Below, piece by piece: positions 1-59,235 of a stretch of DNA of 64,000 nucleotides (within the stretch, counting starts at the first letter, position 1; the number at the start of each line of letters is the position of its first letter). Source of the DNA: Escherichia coli. GTDB taxonomy: Bacteria; Pseudomonadota; Gammaproteobacteria; Enterobacterales; Enterobacteriaceae. The stretch lies in NCBI RefSeq assembly GCF_024700885.2, contig NZ_CP117016.1; one strand, given 5' to 3'. The translations under genes and the position numbers were made by a program. The notes beneath the pieces were generated by a model, which searched no databases, was not told the DNA's origin, and worked only from the letters and a program-made list of their open reading frames with translations.

Positions 1-69
1 TATCGCCTGCTGGTCATCGAAATAGAATGAGGAGTAGCCAGCGGTGAACAGGGCCTGTTTTATTTTCAT
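1..69 (-). CDS. methylaspartate ammonia-lyase, N-terminal fragment (gene continues beyond window start)
   Basis: Reverse complement of 1-69 translates MKIKQALFTAGYSSFYFDDQQAI, resembling MAL N-terminus; start codon overlaps glmE stop (TAATG); expected partner of glutamate mutase genes. Confidence 0.55.
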   Translation of the reverse strand, partial: MKIKQALFTAGYSSFYFDDQQAI

Positions 70-1514
70 TATGGTCTTCCTATTAATTTACTGTGGGATA
101 CAGCATTGATGTCATCTACAACCATCTGGAATGTCGGTTGGCGTCCTTCAAAGCGTGCGCGTTCCGCAACGTAATCGTGGTGGAGGTCGAGAATATCTTT
201 TGGCAATGGAACGGCTCCGGCTTCCAGTACGCGTATCGCGCCGGTGTTGTCACGGACCGGAAGAATTTTGCCCGCGTTGCAGGCGGCTGGCGCAAACGGC
301 ACATCCAGTACGCCCGCTTCAAATGCCAGCACCGTACCGCGCGCAATATCACCATTACCCAGTTCGAACACTTTATTCAGTACCGCGCGAACCTCGCTCT
401 TAATCAGTTCAATTTCCAGTTCAACCGCAGGGCAAGGCGGGAATTTCTGCTCGTTGACCATGTTGAGCATCTGGCGGGAGGCTTTCAGCCCCTGAATGTT
501 GGCAGCGGCAGTCGGGATGCCCCAGGCTTCGTGCGGACTTTTGGTGATGACTTTGGTGGCACCAGACATCCCCGCGACGGCTGCACCCCAGGAGATAATG
601 GCGAACGCTTTCGATTCGTCTTCCGGAAAGCCGCCCATCCACTGGTGAAACACGGTACTTAATTCATAGTCGGTATAGCCATAGCTCTGAAAGTATTCGT
701 GTGCAAGTTCACGCAGAGACTGGATCGCCGCGACATCCTGCGTCAGGCTGCCGACCTGTCCATAACCAACGGTGATAGATTTCACACCCTGTTCCAGCGC
801 CAGTAATCCTTCGATTATCGCGATAGAGTGCGAGATAAACGGCGGGATCAGCGTACCCGTTAGTGGGCCAAACGGTTCGCGGTTGATGCGGATCCCGTGT
901 TCTTCATACATCCCCATTAAACGATCGCAGTACTGCCAGTCGCGGATCGATTTTTCCAGCGTTACGCGCTTGGCATACGGAATATTGTAGGAAATGCCGC
1001 CGCCTTCATAACTGGTAAAGCCGCTGGCCATCGAGATTTCAGCCAGCAGACGCGCATCTGGCGTGCCGTGGCGGATCTGTAGCGGTTTTTGCAAAGTTTC
1101 GGTGAGGCGACGGCAAGCTGCGACGCCGTGGTTAACTACCGGTAAACCGTTCAGTTTAGAGGTTCCGGCTTCGATGGATTTTTTAATCCCTACAGCCGCT
1201 TCTTCGTACCGATTCAGACGGGTATATGCATCGATGGTGCTCGGCAGCAGATCGCACTCTTCTTGTGGTGTTTTCAGTAGTTCGATGTGTTCGTCCATCA
1301 GCGCCACGCCTGCGCGCGGTTGGCTAAGAGTTTTACCTTCCTTGTCTGCTTTCAGCAGGGCAAGAGAGAAGCGTTTATGCTCAGGAATGGTTTGTTGGTA
1401 TTTAACGCCATCTTCAAAGTTTTCAACATCCTTGCCGGTTTCCCAGGTTTTCAGTACCTGTTGCCGCTCGGTCATGAATTCGTCATGGGTTAATTTCTTA
1501 TTTCGAAGTTCCAT
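69..1514 (-). CDS. glmE: glutamate mutase (methylaspartate mutase) E/epsilon subunit
   Basis: 481-aa ORF; sequence recognised as glutamate mutase E chain; operon context with B12-binding S subunit and L component. Confidence 0.85.
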   Translation of the reverse strand: MELRNKKLTHDEFMTERQQVLKTWETGKDVENFEDGVKYQQTIPEHKRFSLALLKADKEGKTLSQPRAGVALMDEHIELLKTPQEECDLLPSTIDAYTRLNRYEEAAVGIKKSIEAGTSKLNGLPVVNHGVAACRRLTETLQKPLQIRHGTPDARLLAEISMASGFTSYEGGGISYNIPYAKRVTLEKSIRDWQYCDRLMGMYEEHGIRINREPFGPLTGTLIPPFISHSIAIIEGLLALEQGVKSITVGYGQVGSLTQDVAAIQSLRELAHEYFQSYGYTDYELSTVFHQWMGGFPEDESKAFAIISWGAAVAGMSGATKVITKSPHEAWGIPTAAANIQGLKASRQMLNMVNEQKFPPCPAVELEIELIKSEVRAVLNKVFELGNGDIARGTVLAFEAGVLDVPFAPAACNAGKILPVRDNTGAIRVLEAGAVPLPKDILDLHHDYVAERARFEGRQPTFQMVVDDINAVSHSKLIGRP

Positions 1515-1532: not shown

Positions 1533-1757
1533 TTATAGGGTTAAGCATTGAATACTGGTGCGCGCGGCGGCCAGTGGATCGACTCTGGCGACGTTTGCCA
1601 GCAGTGGTAATAGCCCCCGGGAATCGCGGTAATATTCAAATTCGGTCGGTAAGAGAATGCGTTTACCGTCGTCGTTTAACTCGCGGTATTTCAACCAGTG
1701 ATGCATATCGAACTGACTGGCACGCGAGAGCCATCCGCCGGAACCAACGACTTTACG
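1533..1757 (-). pseudogene. glmL: glutamate mutase component L, C-terminal fragment separated from N-terminal part by IS26
   Basis: Reading frame is continuous with the 2578-3749 fragment once IS26 and one copy of the 8-bp duplication are removed (restored length about 462 aa). Confidence 0.6.
1750..1757. repeat. IS26 target-site duplication, left copy (ACTTTACG)
   Basis: Identical 8 bp directly flank both IS26 ends. Confidence 0.9.
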
Positions 1758-2577
1758 GGCACTGTTGCAAATAGTCGGTGGTGATAAACTTATCATCCCC
1801 TTTTGCTGATGGAGCTGCACATGAACCCATTCAAAGGCCGGCATTTTCAGCGTGACATCATTCTGTGGGCCGTACGCTGGTACTGCAAATACGGCATCAG
1901 TTACCGTGAGCTGCAGGAGATGCTGGCTGAACGCGGAGTGAATGTCGATCACTCCACGATTTACCGCTGGGTTCAGCGTTATGCGCCTGAAATGGAAAAA
2001 CGGCTGCGCTGGTACTGGCGTAACCCTTCCGATCTTTGCCCGTGGCACATGGATGAAACCTACGTGAAGGTCAATGGCCGCTGGGCGTATCTGTACCGGG
2101 CCGTCGACAGCCGGGGCCGCACTGTCGATTTTTATCTCTCCTCCCGTCGTAACAGCAAAGCTGCATACCGGTTTCTGGGTAAAATCCTCAACAACGTGAA
2201 GAAGTGGCAGATCCCGCGATTCATCAACACGGATAAAGCGCCCGCCTATGGTCGCGCGCTTGCTCTGCTCAAACGCGAAGGCCGGTGCCCGTCTGACGTT
2301 GAACACCGACAGATTAAGTACCGGAACAACGTGATTGAATGCGATCATGGCAAACTGAAACGGATAATCGGCGCCACGCTGGGATTTAAATCCATGAAGA
2401 CGGCTTACGCCACCATCAAAGGTATTGAGGTGATGCGTGCACTACGCAAAGGCCAGGCCTCAGCATTTTATTATGGTGATCCCCTGGGCGAAATGCGCCT
2501 GGTAAGCAGAGTTTTTGAAATGTAAGGCCTTTGAATAAGACAAAAGGCTGCCTCATCGCTAACTTTGCAACAGTGCC
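1758..2577 (+). mobile_element. IS26 (IS6 family) insertion sequence, complete 820 bp
   Basis: 14-bp terminal inverted repeats GGCACTGTTGCAAA at 1758-1771 and its complement at 2564-2577; encodes Tnp26. Confidence 0.95.
1821..2525 (+). CDS. tnpA: IS26 transposase Tnp26
   Basis: 234-aa protein starting MNPFKGRHFQRDIILWAVRWYCKYGISYRELQEM, recognised as IS26 transposase. Confidence 0.95.
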   Translation: MNPFKGRHFQRDIILWAVRWYCKYGISYRELQEMLAERGVNVDHSTIYRWVQRYAPEMEKRLRWYWRNPSDLCPWHMDETYVKVNGRWAYLYRAVDSRGRTVDFYLSSRRNSKAAYRFLGKILNNVKKWQIPRFINTDKAPAYGRALALLKREGRCPSDVEHRQIKYRNNVIECDHGKLKRIIGATLGFKSMKTAYATIKGIEVMRALRKGQASAFYYGDPLGEMRLVSRVFEM

Positions 2578-2585
2578 ACTTTACG
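2578..2585. repeat. IS26 target-site duplication, right copy (ACTTTACG)
   Basis: Identical to 1750-1757. Confidence 0.9.
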
Positions 2586-3749
2586 CACGGTTGTCAGGTC
2601 ACGTCCCATCTGTAAATCGACATTGCCGACGCAGGTGCAGACCTCTTTTTTGGTGCCCGCATGTCTTTCGGTGGCATAACCCACACACAGTCCGGCCAGG
2701 ACGGTATCGAAATATTTTTCTTCTGCATTCGCGGGTAAGTAGTCGGGATGAGCGACTAGATGGCGGAGGTAATGATAAAAAGCGTCCAGCTGTGCGGGTT
2801 GCTGAGCAAAATTCACATTGACTAACTCTTTCGCACTTTCACCAACCACCATTGCCGAGACGCGCATTCCCAGATCGCCTTCCACCGTCCGTTTCACGAA
2901 GGGTTCCGGTACGCCGTGTAAAACGGTGTCGGGCGAGAGCGTGTTGGCACAGGCGGAATAGACATCGGTGGTTGCGCCACCCATGTCGATCAGCATGAAC
3001 TCTTTCCAGCTGTGATCGACGTTACTGATTGCCTTAACCAGTTCAAAGACCGTCCATGGTGTCGGCATTGGTTCTTCGCCTGTTTTATCAACAATGACAT
3101 CCAACCCTTTCCCTTTAACGATGCGTTTAAGGAATATGTCGCAGATAGCCTGGCGTGCAGCTAAAGGGTTCGGATGGTCAAGATCGGGCAGAACGTTGTC
3201 GACGATGGTCAGGTCTTTATGCCCGAGGATCTCCTGCACCTCGTCCTGAATATCCCGGTTTCCGGCATAAATAATGGCGCAGTCGAGTTTGGATTCTGCC
3301 AACACACGGGCGTTATTCAGTCCGTAGCTTTCTTCTCCGCCATCGGTGCCGCCGGTGAACAAGAGAATATCGGGCTGCGTTTCTTCCAGTGCCTGGATAT
3401 CACGGCGGTTCAGCTTGTAGGCGTAATATTGCGCAATTTTAGCACCCGCAGAGTGAGCGGTTACTTTCGCGGTTTCCAGGGTGATAGAAGGCACCAATCC
3501 CATTGCGGCAACCGCCAGCCCACCTTTGGCAGAGGAGGAATACTTCAATGCAACCTCACCACTGTTTAACAGGGGGAGGGCATTATCTACGTTTAACACC
3601 TGGTCCAGGCTGGAGAAAAACCCCTTCGCCAGATGATGGGTGGTGGTTGGGGTCAGAACGTGGTTAACCAACGTTAACGCGTCCCCCTCCCGGGTGAAGA
3701 GGGCTGCTTTGGTCCACGTCGAACCAATATCGACAGAGACGATTTGCAT
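2578..3749 (-). pseudogene. glmL: glutamate mutase component L, N-terminal part truncated by IS26
   Basis: ORF 2559-3749 (396 aa) reads 19 nt into IS26 before stopping; start overlaps glmS stop. Confidence 0.65.
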
Positions 3750-4198
3750 CAGATTGCCTCTTCAAGAATGCGAGTATCAACGTCATGACGTTGGTTGATA
3801 TCGTGGGCCATCAGCTGACAAACATCTTCTAAGTCATGACTTGGGGAAAAGACGCGATCAAATCCCATCTCTTTGAACTTGGTTTCCACGTCAGCGAAGT
3901 CATGTTTTCCGACCACCAGGTTACCGCCCACATAGAGCAGGATGTTACCCAGCCCACGCTCGATGCAGCGTTCGCGCATGCCCAGACAATCGATATCGCC
4001 ATGCCCATAGATAGAGGAGACGACAATCGCGTCAGCACCAGTTTCAATGGCAGCATCAATATATTCGTCCTGGCTGACCATTACGCCCAGATTAATAACT
4101 CTGAAGTCATGGTTGCTAAAAACGCGGTCCAGAACTTTATTGCCTACTGCATGGCAGTCCGCGCCAATAACGCCAATCACAAGTGTTGCTTTCTTCAT
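3749..4198 (-). CDS. glmS: glutamate mutase S/sigma subunit, B12-binding
   Basis: Start at [19 protein letters not shown] with an AAGGAT ribosome-binding site upstream; cobalamin-binding-type N-terminus. Confidence 0.8.
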
Positions 4199-4745
4199 GG
4201 GTAATCCTTTGTAAGACAGAGAGTAAAATAAGTTACACACGTCGTATTTATGGCCGCTCATAACGGCACAGGTTTAATATCACAGGAGTGTCTTTATCTG
4301 ACCGTAATGTTGCAATTGATCTATTTTCAAAATGTCTTTCGGGAAATGATTGTTTAAAGTGTGTTTTCAAATTCTCATTTTAATTCAGTGTGTTATGTCA
4401 ACTAATGTCATGAATGTTAAATTTTTAAAATTAACTTGATTTGATGTATTGAGATAATTGTGATCAACTTCTAATTTGCATTTTTGTGACGTGGCTTTAG
4501 CCATGAGTAAATACATTTCATAAAAGTTAAGTCGAATTTCACTGCAATTCATCTCTGCTTAATGTAAAAATAATGTTGAAAATAACAAATAATTAATGAT
4601 TCATGCGAATTATGACCTTTGTTAGCTCTTTTGATTTTTCGTAAAAAAGAAAAGTACATGAAGGTGCTACCAGTACGAGTAACGTTAATCAAAAGTTTTA
4701 TTACGTCTGGCAATAACGCAGGCCATTTTTCGCGACAGGAGGGAT

Positions 4746-5168
4746 TTAATCAGTATAATCCTCATACAATAGGTCAGGATTTACTGAACCGTTAACGGGG
4801 ATTTGGTGTTGAAATTTAGAAATGGCGGAGTCAATTAATGAAGACAATATCGGAAAAATGACAGTGTCAGAATTAATTTCAATTAATCCTTCTCGTTGTT
4901 GACCAAAAAAGATATTTATCTTGATTTCATTTGTACTACGGCAATCAATATGCAGTAATTTTTGATCGCTGAGATTTTCTGTTTCATAAATGTTTTTGGC
5001 GATAGTCGGATGTATTGATGCCAGACATCTGCTCAGATAAGCCAGATCCTTTAGGGAACACCCCGCTGAGTAGAGGATGTCAGAGAATTTTTGTGTGTCA
5101 ACTGTTGTCTCTGAAGCGTATGTTGCATTGACAGGAAGGGTGTTGAAAGAGATTTGAGATGGGATCAT
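4746..5168 (-). CDS. hypothetical protein (140 aa), AT-rich gene
   Basis: ORF in low-GC DNA, same strand and 80 bp downstream of the 314-aa ORF; no recognisable motif. Confidence 0.4.
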   Translation of the reverse strand: MIPSQISFNTLPVNATYASETTVDTQKFSDILYSAGCSLKDLAYLSRCLASIHPTIAKNIYETENLSDQKLLHIDCRSTNEIKINIFFGQQREGLIEINSDTVIFPILSSLIDSAISKFQHQIPVNGSVNPDLLYEDYTD

Positions 5169-5248
5169 TATTTAAATCTTTCCGTGAGTAATAAAAATTA
5201 ATCCCCGGGCATTGTTTAGCAATATTTGCCACAGGGAATATATAAAAA

Positions 5249-6193
5249 TTAAAGTATTTGATTGGCATCGGTTAACTGATCAATAACCAGTGCCAGATTG
5301 GTAAACATTTTGAAAAAGCGATACTGGCTCGGAATATCTCTTTCAAAGACGAAACATTCAATGTCATTGTTTGAAAAATAAAGGACTAGTGTTGCTGATT
5401 CGTCAGGAAAAATATGGAAATATATCTGGTTACCAGAAGGAGGATAGTCCAGATGAAGGGTATCTTTGCCCGTCACATACCTGTTGTGGTCGTGGATGCT
5501 GCGCTCACACTTCATCAGAGGTGTCATGATACTCATGTATTCATCTGATGTTAATATATTAAAATCACCATCCATTTTAAAGAAACGATAAAGTAACAGT
5601 ACATCCTCTTGCGTAACCGGTTCGTTTGTTTTTAGAGGGAAATAAGTGGGAACCAGAAGATGAGGTTCTAATCTATTTTGTTGAGCGCTATAACTAAATT
5701 TGAACATAAATTCCGGATCGCTCATTAATTGAGCGACATAATTATGCCTGGCTTCAAAAATTTTAACTTTTATCAGGTTAAATAAGTCTGTTTCGTTATC
5801 CTGTATTAAAAGACATTGGCCATAGCAGCCAGGCTTTTTTTCATTATAAGCAGAAACGGTTATTCTGTCAGGAGTGTCAACGTTATATCCAAAAGCCAGA
5901 TAGTGACCTTCCTCATCGAGATTTGTTTCCAGGTTATTTAAATTCATCACATGAAGTGTTTGCAATGCTGATTCAATGAGCTGTTGACTCTCTGAGGTAA
6001 ATGTTTCGCGCTGCGTTGTATAAAGTGTATCGATTCCAACGACTATCCGATGTGGGTCAAGGATGGCGGCAATCATCTTTATTACCTGCACAGTCATGGG
6101 TGATGTCATTGATTCTTTATCTGTTTTTAGAGGATCATTAGATGGCCAACCTGAGAAGCGATTGACAGCAGAACTGATATTATCAGGACTCAT
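5249..6193 (-). CDS. hypothetical protein (314 aa) with internal YRFFKM repeat
   Basis: Long ORF in low-GC DNA; motif YRFFKM occurs twice; no recognisable domain. Confidence 0.5.
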   Translation of the reverse strand: MSPDNISSAVNRFSGWPSNDPLKTDKESMTSPMTVQVIKMIAAILDPHRIVVGIDTLYTTQRETFTSESQQLIESALQTLHVMNLNNLETNLDEEGHYLAFGYNVDTPDRITVSAYNEKKPGCYGQCLLIQDNETDLFNLIKVKIFEARHNYVAQLMSDPEFMFKFSYSAQQNRLEPHLLVPTYFPLKTNEPVTQEDVLLLYRFFKMDGDFNILTSDEYMSIMTPLMKCERSIHDHNRYVTGKDTLHLDYPPSGNQIYFHIFPDESATLVLYFSNNDIECFVFERDIPSQYRFFKMFTNLALVIDQLTDANQIL

Positions 6194-6647
6194 AGCAGCA
6201 ACCTCATTGTAATCAAGCGAGGCGCTGAGCGTACTCGGCTATAGAAAAACTAACTTGCAAAAATCGCTCATTTTTCATTTATCAGGCGAAAGTGGTCTCT
6301 GTTCACTCAGAAACAATCACTCCCGCTAAGTCATACCTGTATCATCGATACATTTAAGTGATTATTACTAATGAAACAATAACATAACGGGCTTACGGCC
6401 GGTGCTCATAAACGCAACAATCAATTAACTTTGATAAAAATATGTTATGTAAAATAGCAACAAATTGGCTAATCTAATCAATTGGTATTATAAAAAGTGG
6501 ATAAGGCGGTTCTGTTAAATAAAACACTGGTTTTTTATCTATACCTTTTCATTGTAATAATTGTGTTGCATAAATATTTCACAATAAATTAACAATAAAA
6601 TTACCAATGATCTATGGTTTATACATAATTAACATATTTGGTTGGTT

Positions 6648-6661
6648 TTGATATAAATCAA
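6648..6661. promoter_or_regulatory. FNR-type binding site (TTGAT-N4-ATCAA) in cydA control region
   Basis: Exact match TTGATATAAATCAA in the long AT-rich leader upstream of cydA. Confidence 0.45.
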
Positions 6662-6998
6662 TTTTTAATTCTTGAAAAAAATCTGCAAAACACGATAAAT
6701 TGTCGTAGATCAAATTGGTGAGATCGTGACAATTTCGCTATAAATTGATCACTGTCGAAAAATGCAAATTTGCTCAATAAAAACCTGTTTATTGTAAGGA
6801 TTTTGCGGCGTAATATAATTACGGGATCAATTTGGTTTATTCATTAACATATTTGTAACTTTTTTATCATTGTCTTTTCCTCTTTTGATGAAATGGCAAC
6901 GATAGAGGCGAGCAAATAATTTTGTATTGGGGCATGCGTGTGACCCTTTCTAACGGGGTTCACTCTCGGAGTCTTCATGCGATGAGCAAGGAGTCATG

Positions 6999-8567
6999 AT
7001 GTTAGATATAGTCGAACTGTCGCGCTTACAGTTTGCCTTGACCGCGATGTACCACTTCCTTTTTGTGCCACTGACGCTCGGTATGGCGTTCCTGCTGGCC
7101 ATTATGGAAACGGTCTACGTCCTTTCCGGCAAACAGATTTATAAAGATATGACCAAGTTCTGGGGCAAGTTGTTTGGTATCAACTTCGCTCTGGGTGTGG
7201 CTACCGGTCTGACCATGGAGTTCCAGTTCGGGACTAACTGGTCTTACTATTCCCACTATGTAGGGGATATCTTCGGTGCGCCGCTGGCAATCGAAGGTCT
7301 AATGGCCTTCTTCCTCGAATCCACCTTTGTAGGTCTGTTCTTCTTCGGTTGGGATCGTCTGGGTAAAGTTCAGCATATGTGTGTCACCTGGCTGGTGGCG
7401 CTCGGTTCAAACCTGTCCGCACTGTGGATTCTGGTTGCGAACGGCTGGATGCAAAACCCAATCGCGTCCGATTTCAACTTTGAAACTATGCGTATGGAGA
7501 TGGTGAGCTTCTCCGAGCTGGTGCTTAACCCGGTTGCTCAGGTGAAATTCGTTCACACTGTAGCGTCTGGTTATGTGACTGGCGCGATGTTCATCCTCGG
7601 TATCAGCGCATGGTATATGCTGAAAGGTCGTGACTTCGCCTTCGCTAAACGCTCCTTTGCTATCGCTGCCAGCTTCGGTATGGCTGCCGTTCTGTCTGTT
7701 ATTGTTCTGGGTGATGAATCTGGTTACGAAATGGGCGACGTGCAGAAAACCAAACTGGCTGCTATTGAAGCCGAGTGGGAAACGCAACCTGCGCCTGCTG
7801 CCTTTACTCTGTTCGGCATTCCTGATCAGGAAGAGGAGACGAACAAATTTGCGATCCAGATCCCTTACGCGCTGGGCATCATTGCAACGCGTTCCGTGGA
7901 TACTCCAGTTATCGGCCTGAAAGAACTGATGGTGCAGCATGAAGAACGCATTCGTAACGGGATGAAGGCGTACTCTCTGCTCGAGCAACTGCGTTCTGGT
8001 TCTACCGACCAGGCGGTTCGTGACCAGTTCAATAGCATGAAGAAAGACCTCGGTTACGGTCTGCTGCTGAAACGCTATACGCCAAACGTGGCTGATGCGA
8101 CTGAAGCGCAGATTCAACAGGCAACCAAAGACTCCATTCCGCGTGTAGCGCCGCTGTACTTCGCGTTCCGTATCATGGTGGCGTGTGGCTTCCTGCTGCT
8201 GGCAATCATCGCGCTCTCTTTCTGGAGTGTCATCCGCAACCGCATTGGCGAGAAAAAATGGCTGCTGCGCGCCGCGCTGTACGGTATTCCGCTGCCGTGG
8301 ATTGCTGTAGAAGCGGGCTGGTTTGTGGCTGAATATGGCCGCCAACCGTGGGCTATCGGTGAAGTGCTGCCGACAGCTGTGGCGAACTCGTCACTGACCG
8401 CAGGTGATCTCATCTTCTCAATGGTGCTGATTTGCGGCCTGTATACCCTGTTCCTGGTGGCAGAATTGTTCTTAATGTTTAAATTTGCACGCCTCGGCCC
8501 AAGCAGCCTGAAAACCGGTCGCTATCACTTTGAGCAGTCTTCCACGACTACTCAGCCGGCACGCTAA
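6999..8567 (+). CDS. cydA: cytochrome bd-I ubiquinol oxidase subunit I
   Basis: 522-aa protein [23 protein letters not shown], recognised. Confidence 0.95.
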
Positions 8568-16094: not shown

Positions 16095-16170
16095 GGGTCG
16101 TTAGCTCAGTTGGTAGAGCAGTTGACTTTTAATCAATTGGTCGCAGGTTCGAATCCTGCACGACCCACCA
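16095..16170 (+). tRNA. lysT: tRNA-Lys (anticodon UUU)
   Basis: 76-nt cloverleaf GGGTCGTTAGCTCAGTTGGTAGAGC...ACGACCCACCA with CTTTTAA anticodon loop. Confidence 0.95.
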
Positions 16171-16198
16171 ATCGCTAAGGTGGACGCGGTAGTAAAAC

Positions 16199-16270
16199 GT
16201 GAAGGATAACGTTGCGTCAGCAACGGCCCGAAGGGCGAGACGAAGTCGAGTCATCCTGCACGACCCACCA
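16199..16270 (+). repeat. spacer repeat ending in a copy of the tRNA-Lys 3' terminus
   Basis: About 70 bp GTGAAGGATAACGTTGCGTCAGCAACGGCCCG...TCATCCTGCACGACCCACCA; second copy at 16694-16763. Confidence 0.7.
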
Positions 16271-16305
16271 CTAACCTAGTTAGTTGTAGTATCCAGCGTA
16301 GTATC

Positions 16306-16381
16306 GGGTGATTAGCTCAGCTGGGAGAGCACCTCCCTTACAAGGAGGGGGTCGGCGGTTCGATCCCGTCATCACCCACCA
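16306..16381 (+). tRNA. valT: tRNA-Val (anticodon UAC)
   Basis: 76-nt cloverleaf GGGTGATTAGCTCAGCTGGGAGAGC...CATCACCCACCA. Confidence 0.95.
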
Positions 16382-16383
16382 CC

Positions 16384-16459
16384 GGGTCGTTAGCTCAGTT
16401 GGTAGAGCAGTTGACTTTTAATCAATTGGTCGCAGGTTCGAATCCTGCACGACCCACCA
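16384..16459 (+). tRNA. lysW: tRNA-Lys (anticodon UUU)
   Basis: Identical to lysT. Confidence 0.95.
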
Positions 16460-16510
16460 CTAATTACGGTGGGTTCGGTGGAAGTAGTTTGTAGTATCCA
16501 GCGCAGTATC

Positions 16511-16586
16511 GGGTGATTAGCTCAGCTGGGAGAGCACCTCCCTTACAAGGAGGGGGTCGGCGGTTCGATCCCGTCATCACCCACCA
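16511..16586 (+). tRNA. valZ: tRNA-Val (anticodon UAC)
   Basis: Identical to valT. Confidence 0.95.
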
Positions 16587-16589
16587 CTC

Positions 16590-16665
16590 GGGTCGTTAGC
16601 TCAGTTGGTAGAGCAGTTGACTTTTAATCAATTGGTCGCAGGTTCGAATCCTGCACGACCCACCA
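16590..16665 (+). tRNA. lysY: tRNA-Lys (anticodon UUU)
   Basis: Identical to lysT. Confidence 0.95.
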
Positions 16666-16693
16666 ATTTTAACATCAAACTCAGATGTTAAGC

Positions 16694-16763
16694 GTGAAGG
16701 ATAACGTTGCGTCAGCAACGGCCCGTAGGGCGAGCGAAGCGAGTCATCCTGCACGACCCACCA
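16694..16763 (+). repeat. spacer repeat ending in a copy of the tRNA-Lys 3' terminus (second copy)
   Basis: Near-identical to 16199-16270. Confidence 0.7.
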
Positions 16764-16811
16764 ATTTTAAAGATTGGTTCCGAGTAGAAATCTTTCAGGT
16801 AACACCCGTAT

Positions 16812-16887
16812 GGGTCGTTAGCTCAGTTGGTAGAGCAGTTGACTTTTAATCAATTGGTCGCAGGTTCGAATCCTGCACGACCCACCA
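16812..16887 (+). tRNA. lysZ: tRNA-Lys (anticodon UUU)
   Basis: Identical to lysT. Confidence 0.95.
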
Positions 16888-16920
16888 TCCTGAATGATTA
16901 AAGCAGCATAATCCCGCAAG

Positions 16921-16996
16921 GGGTCGTTAGCTCAGTTGGTAGAGCAGTTGACTTTTAATCAATTGGTCGCAGGTTCGAATCCTGCACGACCCACCA
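16921..16996 (+). tRNA. lysQ: tRNA-Lys (anticodon UUU)
   Basis: Identical to lysT. Confidence 0.95.
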
Positions 16997-56001: not shown

Positions 56002-56381
56002 CAATGGATTATTCACAGTTAAGTGATTTTGAAATTAACAAGCGAGTGGCAATCGCAAATGGACTTTTGGTTCAGGGCATTGATGATAGTAAAGCCACTG
56101 GAATGACTAGCAAATATCACGAACTCCGGCCGCACACTGTTTGGGTGAGTGATGGTAAAAACCCATGGGTGCAATATGCACCAACTCTTTGCTGGGAGGA
56201 TGCTGGACCTGTCATCTTGAAGAATCGCATCAGTCTTGTTTGGGATTGCGCTGAAGATGGCAGTTCTGAATGGTGGAATTCTGTTGATCAGTTCGATTCT
56301 TGCCGAGTTCAGTACCAGTCTAATCCCCTCCGCGCCGCCATGATTGTATTTCTCATGATGCAGGACGCCAATAATGCTTAG
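55998..56381 (+). CDS. hypothetical nin-region protein (127 aa)
   Basis: ATGA overlap with upstream stop. Confidence 0.5.
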
Positions 56382-56559
56382 CCCATCCCAATCCCTTCAA
56401 TACCAGAAAGAAAGCGTCGAGCGGGCTTTAACGTGCGCTAACTGCGGTCAGAAGCTGCATGTGCTGGAAGTTCACGTGTGTGAGCGTTGTATATATGAAT
56501 GCTTAAATATGGTGGAACATAATGAGAAATATAAGCAACATAGACGAATTAAGAAATAA
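56374..56559 (+). pseudogene. ninF: ninF disrupted by insertion; chimeric 61-aa ORF keeps the CxxC...CxxC motif
   Basis: [37 protein letters not shown] then divergence at 56486; in-frame NinF-like C-terminus resumes at 57028-57089. Confidence 0.6.
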
Positions 56560-57027
56560 ATTATCATATGATGATGTTTTAGGTGTGCTTAGATGGAAAG
56601 TGTCTCCTTCTAATAATGTTAAGGTTGGCAGTGTTGCTGGTTACATTAGGAGTGATGGTTATAGGATGTTAACTATCGATGGTGTAATTACTTATGCTCA
56701 CCACGTTATATGGATGATAAATAATGGTGAGATTCCATTAGGGTATAAAATTGATCATATAAATGGAGTAAGGTCAGATAATAGGCTATCTAATCTTCGA
56801 TTGGTTACACACCAACAGAATGCACAGAACCAAAAGAGAAAAATAACCAATTCGTCAGGAGTGACTGGAGTATATTTCAATAAAGAGAGATGTAAGTGGA
56901 TTGCGAATATATGCGTAGATGGGCGCACCAAATATCTTGGAATATTTGCAAGCATCATTGACGCTATTGCAGAAAGGAAGAGGGCAGAAAAAGAACTGGG
57001 TTTTCATGAAAACCATGGCAGACCATA
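56486..57027 (+). mobile_element. 542-bp AT-rich insertion carrying an HNH homing endonuclease gene, inside ninF
   Basis: Deleting 56486-57027 restores a contiguous ninF frame (...VHVCEHCAELMSDPNSSMYEEEDDE); abrupt GC drop. Confidence 0.6.
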
Positions 57028-57028
57028 A
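56522..57028 (+). CDS. HNH homing endonuclease with AP2-like DNA-binding domain
   Basis: 168 aa; YKIDHINGVRSDNRLSNLRLVTHQQNAQN (HNH) followed by SGVTGVYFNKERCKWIANI (AP2-like). Confidence 0.75.
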   Translation: MRNISNIDELRNKLSYDDVLGVLRWKVSPSNNVKVGSVAGYIRSDGYRMLTIDGVITYAHHVIWMINNGEIPLGYKIDHINGVRSDNRLSNLRLVTHQQNAQNQKRKITNSSGVTGVYFNKERCKWIANICVDGRTKYLGIFASIIDAIAERKRAEKELGFHENHGRP

Positions 57029-57029
57029 C

Positions 57030-57089
57030 TGCGCAGAACTGATGAGCGATCCGAATAGCTCAATGTACGAGGAAGAAGACGATGAGTGA
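57030..57089 (+). pseudogene. ninF: ninF 3' remnant
   Basis: In-frame CAELMSDPNSSMYEEEDDE-stop immediately after the insertion. Confidence 0.5.
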
Positions 57090-59079: not shown

Positions 59080-59154
59080 GGGTCAGTCGTATAAAGGTCA
59101 TTACGGAAGGCTGTTAACCTTCTTATCGTGGTTCGAGTCCACGCTGTCCCGCCA
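59080..59154 (+). tRNA. phage-encoded tRNA, anticodon GUU (Asn-type), slightly non-canonical
   Basis: Manual fold: acceptor GGGTCAG/CTGTCCC (one mismatch), D-loop with GG, anticodon arm GAAGG-CTGTTAA-CCTTC, T-arm CGTGG-TTCGAGT-CCACG, discriminator G, CCA. Confidence 0.55.
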
Positions 59155-59159
59155 AATAT

Positions 59160-59235
59160 GCTGGTTTAGCTCCAATGGTAGAGCAGTCGCCTTGTAAACG
59201 AATGGGTAGCGGTTCAAGTCCGTTAACCAGCACCA
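59160..59235 (+). tRNA. phage-encoded tRNA, anticodon UGU (Thr-type), weak anticodon stem
   Basis: Manual fold: acceptor GCTGGTT/AACCAGC perfect, D-arm GCTC-CAATGGTA-GAGC, T-loop TTCAAGT, CCA; anticodon stem has two mismatches. Confidence 0.5.

Follow-up and report, generated by a model that had tools for sequence, protein, structure and literature searches.

The glmL gene of an accessory operon of Escherichia coli is split by a single complete copy of IS26, a common and well-known insertion sequence associated with resistance, within the 64-kb stretch of DNA analyzed in this work (64,000 nucleotides, hereafter referred to as the window). A recent, clone-specific insertion of this element, inactivating glmL, is in our opinion the best explanation of the locus, and we give it a probability of roughly 90%. 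The features on which the analysis was based are collected in Table 1.

Table 1. Features of the IS26 insertion and of the neighboring glm genes, in order of their position within the window.
Feature	Position	Strand	Remarks
mal (methylaspartate ammonia-lyase), first 23 codons	1-69	-	cut by window edge; read from sequence
glmE, methylaspartate mutase subunit E	69-1514	-	intact, first gene downstream of insertion; TIGR01503
glmL 3' fragment	1533-1757	-	codons 389-462 plus stop; begins with duplicated R-K-V codons
target-site duplication, left copy	1750-1757	.	ACTTTACG
IS26, complete copy	1758-2577	+	820 bp; boundaries read from sequence; tnp26 direction opposite to glm operon
left terminal inverted repeat	1758-1771	+	GGCACTGTTGCAAA; contains TTGCAA
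tnp26 transposase gene	1821-2525	+	234 aa plus stop; open, intact
right terminal inverted repeat	2564-2577	+	TTTGCAACAGTGCC, reverse complement of left end
glmL 5' fragment (truncated ORF)	2559-3749; native DNA 2578-3749	-	ORF list, NCBIfam alignment
target-site duplication, right copy	2578-2585	.	ACTTTACG
glmS, methylaspartate (glutamate) mutase subunit S	3749-4198	-	intact, upstream of insertion; NF002612, TIGR01501

The IS26 copy and the interrupted glmL gene

The inserted element shows 100% identity across all 820 bp with the IS26 copies of at least 5000 plasmid records, in which the overlying genes are annotated as "IS6-like element IS26 family transposase". Its terminal inverted repeats are perfect (14/14 bp in a scripted comparison of both ends) and start with GG, and the repeat GGCACTGTTGCAAA agrees with the family consensus at all conserved positions, deviating from it at positions 3-5 only, i.e., at those which are the most variable within the inverted-repeat consensus of the IS6/IS26 family (PMC6807381). 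The product of tnp26 was recognized by the NCBIfam profile NF033587 (IS6-family transposase) with 275.6 bits at a cut-off of 125. According to its translation, it is the canonical G184 form and carries the DDE triad at D78/D138/E173; Harmer et al. (PMC4196232) number these residues D82/D142/E177, which fits a start located four codons upstream, at ATG 1809. A scripted scan of the 64-kb window revealed no further IS26 ends besides those of this copy. The sequence-only reading discussed below had spoken of a single chromosomal IS26, a count which the scan supports for these 64 kb and not for the whole chromosome. It is also worth mentioning that a long antisense ORF within IS26 (2348 to 1533) enters the glmL 3' remnant in frame.

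The direct repeat flanking the element, ACTTTACG, is exactly 8 bp long, as the ninth base differs on both sides, and the probability of such an 8-bp match by chance is 1/65,536. In strains 1190 and MLI114, whose site is empty, the octamer is present as a single copy, within the context ...GGAACCAACGACTTTACGCACGGTTGTC..., and codon arithmetic places it at nucleotides 1165-1172 of glmL, i.e., within codons R389-K390-V391. A previous sequence-only reading of the window had described a complete 820-bp IS26 with intact 14-bp inverted repeats and an intact transposase, bounded by a perfect 8-bp direct repeat; upon re-reading, all of its coordinates proved correct, the two copies of the repeat being identical and related genomes carrying one copy.

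When IS26 and one copy of the repeat were deleted in silico, an in-frame, minus-strand glmL ORF of 462 codons was obtained, whose product showed zero differences from GlmL of strain 1190 (RefSeq WP_001167709.1). The break is located inside codon 391 of 462, in good agreement with the sequence-only reading, which had set the split about 390 codons into a gene of roughly 462 codons. The same reading had claimed that the two halves of glmL join in frame, and the identity of the joined ORF with WP_001167709.1 bears this out, indicating one gene and not two unrelated ones.

The identity of this gene is well supported by profile searches. The reconstructed GlmL scored 510.7 bits against the NCBIfam equivalog NF040745 (methylaspartate mutase accessory protein GlmL; cut-off 475) and 893 bits against TIGR01319 (GlmL family; cut-off 204), and Pfam MutL (PF13941) covers its residues 3-456. 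Moreover, glmL sits between glmS and glmE on the same strand, and both neighbors pass the equivalog cut-offs: GlmS with 251.9 bits against NF002612 (cut-off 110) and 245.8 bits against TIGR01501 (cut-off 135.8), and GlmE with 860.9 bits against TIGR01503 (cut-off 390.1). The glmS gene is annotated as such in strains 1190 and MLI114. On the other side of glmE, the ATG of mal overlaps the glmE stop codon by 1 nt, and the DNA of this gene start is the same as in MLI114, where it is annotated as methylaspartate ammonia-lyase.

The 5' part of the interrupted gene encodes native residues 1-391 followed by the IS-encoded residues ALLQS, with a stop codon 19 nt into IS26, which gives a product of 396 aa. 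This truncated protein scored 458 bits against NF040745, i.e., under the cut-off of 475, with the alignment ending at residue 391, and 759 bits against TIGR01319, with profile positions 387-456 gone. The truncation costs GlmL the conserved C-terminal part of the family profile (about 15%), from the glycine-rich VVGSGG segment onward. This segment may correspond to the ASKHA "adenosine" motif, which could serve as a lead. A single-sequence AlphaFold2 model of GlmL (mean pLDDT 34.5) was too poor to read the role of the C-terminus from it, and a sequence search of the PDB with GlmL found no relative.

The disrupted gene had been presented in the sequence-only reading as the L component of the glutamate mutase operon. 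The assignment to glmL of the glm operon stands; the protein itself, however, is annotated as an accessory one, and the catalytic enzyme consists of GlmS plus GlmE. In the part of PMC4682846 dealing with GlmL/MutL, earlier work is cited according to which it is a reactivating chaperone of glutamate mutase. Taken at the sequence level, the insertion is predicted to be a knockout of glmL, which is an accessory gene within an operon for glutamate breakdown that is optional in E. coli.

Distribution of the site and age of the insertion

For the analysis of the distribution of the target site, 5426 complete E. coli genomes were searched with a 247-bp sequence covering the reconstructed junction. 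The empty site was present in 1131 of them, in each once and in each on the chromosome, and 773 of these matches showed at least 99% identity; in every one among the matches listed, the gene at this place is annotated as glmL. The uninterrupted glmL site is thus found in 20.8% of complete E. coli genomes, and a frequency of 26.5% has been given for the glutamate fermentation cluster in this species (PMC4682846). The occupied site was represented by a 1751-bp query, and a genome was considered as occupied when one place covered at least 80% of it. As none of the 5426 complete E. coli genomes reached this coverage, the insertion of IS26 into glmL is absent from this collection. Likewise, no gene encoding the exact truncated 396-aa GlmL product was on record in a large gene-position collection, and the left IS26 junction had no exact match among the GTDB species-representative genomes.

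The comparison with MLI114, an ESBL E. coli from a soldier's stool in Mali (PMC10198576), was much more informative. A 25-kb flank of the window was 100% identical with this strain, and when positions 2578-64000 and 1-1757 were compared with the MLI114 chromosome, 0 mismatches were found in all 63,172 non-IS bases. The identical stretch includes the P22-like prophage adjoining ybhC. The window differs from MLI114 solely by IS26 and the additional 8 bp, and glmL of MLI114 is intact. Since nothing else distinguishes the two sequences, the insertion is, on this comparison, a very recent and clone-specific event. The window would accordingly derive from a sibling isolate of this clone or from another assembly of it.

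The MLI114 chromosome was found to be free of IS26, as the occupied-site query matched only one place there, i.e., the glm flanks. A donor of IS26 nevertheless exists in the clone, because the plasmid p8_MLI114 contains at least two full-length copies, one identical over 820 bp and another differing by a single mismatch, as well as a fragment of IS6. The IS26 copies of p8_MLI114 adjoin mph(A)-mrx(A)-mphR(A).

So close a match to a chromosome with an empty site raises the question of whether IS26 in glmL could be an assembly artefact, or could be carried by only a part of the sequenced culture. Besides the fact that the window otherwise equals MLI114 over 63,172 bases and that MLI114 is without this IS26, such a reading might draw on the public assembly of MLI114, which is a version 2 and in which one plasmid record is a linear, incomplete contig containing pseudogenes of IS26, and on IS copies being classic trouble spots for assemblers. 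We find it very unlikely, as a misjoin would not yield a perfect duplication of an octamer found once in the empty site, and both junctions are located exactly at the IS26 termini. Moreover, a near-clone of MLI114 from another person, MLI121, exists and is 14 cgMLST alleles apart from it (PMC10198576), and the window might come from this isolate.

Possible route of IS26 into the chromosome

Published work shows that the copy-in reaction of IS26 forms only cointegrates, and that homologous recombination completes it to a single IS26 flanked by an 8-bp duplication (PMC10433875, PMC7986276, PMC4196232). Resolution of cointegrates has been observed in recombination-proficient hosts only (PMC4196232, PMC7986276), and Harmer and Hall (2021), as cited in PMC10433875, state that "IS26 cannot move alone". 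The structure found in glmL, i.e., a single IS26 with the 8-bp duplication, is compatible with a resolved cointegrate, an end product which keeps no record of its intermediate. From the known behavior of IS26, we infer the following route. An IS26 on a resident plasmid or a translocatable unit would have attacked the chromosomal octamer ACTTTACG by copy-in, and the donor would thereby have become part of the chromosome, bounded by two direct copies of the element. RecA-dependent recombination between both copies would then have dropped the donor, so that one IS26 and the duplication stayed. The sequence-only reading had seen in the flanking repeat the signature of simple transposition. This is the wrong mechanism for IS26 and has to be replaced by copy-in cointegrate formation combined with homologous recombination (PMC10433875, PMC7986276).

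It should be stressed that one IS, an 8-bp duplication and contiguous flanks would look the same if IS26 had moved alone into glmL, by simple cut-and-paste or direct insertion. The decision between the two routes comes from the published assays, which recover cointegrates only and in which resolution needs a recombination-proficient host (PMC10433875, PMC4196232, PMC7986276), and they leave a lone move with only a slim chance.

Slightly more improbable still, in our view, is that a larger IS26 structure (a pseudo-compound transposon or an integrated plasmid) once occupied the site and left this copy behind, or that the copy arose by intramolecular deletion or inversion. IS26 often forms arrays, and the plasmids of the clone hold IS26-bounded resistance DNA. 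The window, however, contains a single IS26 in 64 kb, and the sequence on both sides of it is collinear with the empty site, without any loss or inversion. The collinearity of both flanks excludes an intramolecular IS26 event; in addition, such a deletion or inversion splits the duplication between two IS26 copies (PMC7986276), whereas here both copies of the octamer are located around one IS. A transient larger IS26 structure that later collapsed would be a version of the recent insertion proposed here.

Predicted effect on the glm operon

The operon order in MLI114 is glmS-glmL-glmE-mal-AtuA family-DUF4387-symporter-fumD-cobO. Of these genes, the window contains glmS to the start of mal only, and the rest, through cobO, was read from MLI114, which is identical up to the window edge. 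Via MLI114, glmS-glmL-glmE-mal were thus found to be linked with cobO and with fumD, the mesaconase gene. In that strain the genes from glmS to DUF4387 are spaced by -4 to +18 nt, and after DUF4387 there follow a dicarboxylate/amino-acid symporter gene at 160 nt, fumD at 107 nt and cobO at 9 nt.

The insertion leaves an untranslated stretch of 1047 nt between the stop codon of the truncated glmL and the start of glmE, and a search of this gap for start codons with a Shine-Dalgarno sequence in front of them found none. As glmL translation ends just inside IS26, a transcript of the operon would carry about 1 kb of untranslated RNA ahead of glmE, which would favor Rho-dependent polarity on glmE, mal and the packed genes after them. 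For the C/G ratio of this RNA, unremarkable values of 0.7-1.5 and of about 1.0-1.3 were obtained, i.e., there is a mild C excess and no strong Rho-utilisation signature. Judging from these features, polarity of the insertion on glmE and mal, already suggested in the sequence-only reading, is plausible. It could also reach past mal onto the AtuA-family and DUF4387 genes, because the genes from glmS to DUF4387 are tightly spaced, and possibly onto the three more genes after them (symporter, fumD, and cobO). The glmE gene has its own AAGG Shine-Dalgarno sequence, 18 nt past the glmL stop codon, and should therefore be translated from any read-through transcript.

The other question is whether the element could restore or even raise the expression of the downstream genes. 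TTGCAA, present in the inverted repeats of the IS26 family, is a bidirectional -35 motif, and in its outward orientation it is frequently combined with a -10 of the flanking DNA, which raises expression (PMC6807381). The insertion might accordingly be thought adaptive, either by an IS26 hybrid promoter turning on glmE, mal and further genes up to fumD and cobO, or by selection for loss of the pathway. This view fares no better than that of a larger IS26 structure. On either side, no acceptable -10-like hexamer was found 15-19 bp from the outward TTGCAA (the candidates were CGTTGG, GTTGGT, TTGGTT, TGGTTC, and GGTTCC), and a consensus scan of the operon strand inside IS26 revealed neither a promoter-like nor a terminator-like site. 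The tnp26 gene is directed away from the downstream genes, and the presence of the insertion in 0 of 5426 genomes gives no sign of its recurrence or spread. With tnp26 in the opposite direction and TTGCAA motifs without a -10 partner, the element would provide no compensating outward promoter. We regard it as similarly far-fetched that silencing of the B12-dependent glutamate mutase was useful in a gut-colonising ESBL clone and hence selected, or that the antisense ORF 2348-1533 is expressed as a chimera.

Returning to the recent insertion as a plain loss of glmL, the catalytic S and E subunits are intact, and the most likely outcome is that the route from glutamate to mesaconate is weakened or silenced. 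The insertion is probably neutral in the laboratory, and its phenotype may be silent, since no laboratory condition is known to express the cluster in E. coli; Kronen and Berg found no condition for its expression in E. coli O157:H7, and no growth on glutamate (PMC4682846).

Significance and comparison with known systems

The case presents nothing new in kind: a known element, acting by a known mechanism, produced an ordinary gene knockout in a known accessory operon, and its importance is otherwise small, consisting mostly of strain-level bookkeeping. Some points, nevertheless, are worth mentioning. Firstly, it is a clean and datable example of the passage of IS26 from a resistance plasmid to the chromosome within a clone of ESBL E. 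coli, and the empty site is still present in a sibling genome. Secondly, the naturally glmL-disrupted strain and its matched intact relative form a pair that could help to study what the methylaspartate-pathway cluster does in E. coli. Thirdly, an IS26 already present in the target raises the frequency of the targeted conservative reaction about 100-fold (PMC7986276), and the chromosomal copy in glmL is now expected to be a preferred target in this reaction for those resistance plasmids of the clone that bear IS26. Later integration of translocatable units or plasmids with IS26 could therefore be efficient at this place. The idea that this copy might seed later rearrangements, put forward from the sequence alone, is therefore reasonable, given the roughly 100-fold higher use of IS26-bearing targets and the IS26-flanked resistance DNA carried by the clone.

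Compared with the reference IS26, the element described here is alike in its sequence (820 bp), the 14-bp inverted repeats, Tnp26 with its DDE triad and the 8-bp target duplication, and its location alone is unusual, i.e., a chromosomal metabolic gene instead of a resistance plasmid or island.

The end product is the same as in single insertions of the R388::IS26 type (PMC4196232, PMC10433875), with one IS26 in the target and a new 8-bp duplication, as it stays in the target replicon once the DNA separating the two IS26 copies of a cointegrate has been removed. In contrast to R388::IS26, the target here is chromosomal, and both donor and cointegrate were deduced rather than observed; it should be added that the R388::IS26 of PMC4196232 was constructed in vitro from a cointegrate, which was digested with SwaI and religated, and did not arise by recombination in the cell.

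Finally, the glutamate fermentation cluster of E. coli O157:H7 and other Enterobacteriaceae, as far as its layout is given by Kronen and Berg (2015) (PMC4682846), agrees in gene set and order with that annotated in MLI114, and the locus analyzed in this work differs from this methylaspartate-pathway cluster in having its glmL interrupted by IS26.

Reading frame across the IS26 end and IS26 copies on the sibling plasmid

A mechanically called open reading frame that starts within IS26 passes the left inverted repeat of the element and continues in frame as the 3' remnant of glmL. No Shine-Dalgarno-like sequence was found upstream of this frame. Probably it is nothing more than an antisense frame that happens to be open in the transposase gene tnp26.

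On p8_MLI114, a plasmid of the sibling E. coli MLI114 (its record, NZ_CP117012.1, is an incomplete linear contig), the transposase gene of one of the two full-length IS26 copies contains an internal stop. The IS26 copies and the IS6 fragment are neighbours of mph(A)-mrx(A)-mphR(A), and the tetR that they flank is truncated.

Features located in the window and on the sibling plasmid
Feature	Position	Strand	Description
Antisense ORF	1533-2348	-	271 codons; ATG inside IS26, antisense to tnp26
Orphan ORF	4746-5168	-	140 aa; inside AT-rich stretch
Orphan ORF	5249-6193	-	314 aa; inside AT-rich stretch
tRNA array	16095-16996		seven genes: five tRNA-Lys (UUU), two tRNA-Val (UAC)
P22-like prophage	about 42449-64000		adjoins ybhC; extends past window end
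tRNA-Asn and tRNA-Thr	59080-59235		carried by P22-like prophage
Two full-length IS26 and one IS6 fragment	p8_MLI114 (NZ_CP117012.1) 107-926, 4111-4930, 4933-5106

AT-rich interval between glmS and cydA and the tRNA array

The interval separating glmS from cydA (4200-7000) is AT-rich, with a GC content of 31-39% compared with about 52% on either side. Both orphan ORFs located there are annotated as "hypothetical protein" in MLI114 and in strain 1190, an E. coli comparison genome, and searches of NCBIfam, PADLOC, and PHROGs gave no matches for either of them. Further along, the tRNA array is bordered, according to the MLI114 annotation, by cpoB and nadA.

P22-like prophage

The P22-like prophage is 100% identical to its counterpart in E. 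coli MLI114, and its annotated genes include those for an integrase, an excisionase, a LexA-family repressor, a terminase, and a portal protein, as well as nin and lysis genes. At about 56374-57089, an HNH endonuclease gene has a complete ninF on one side and a partial copy of ninF on the other (gene calls taken from the MLI114 annotation of the identical prophage DNA). This arrangement may have been left behind when a mobile endonuclease inserted here.
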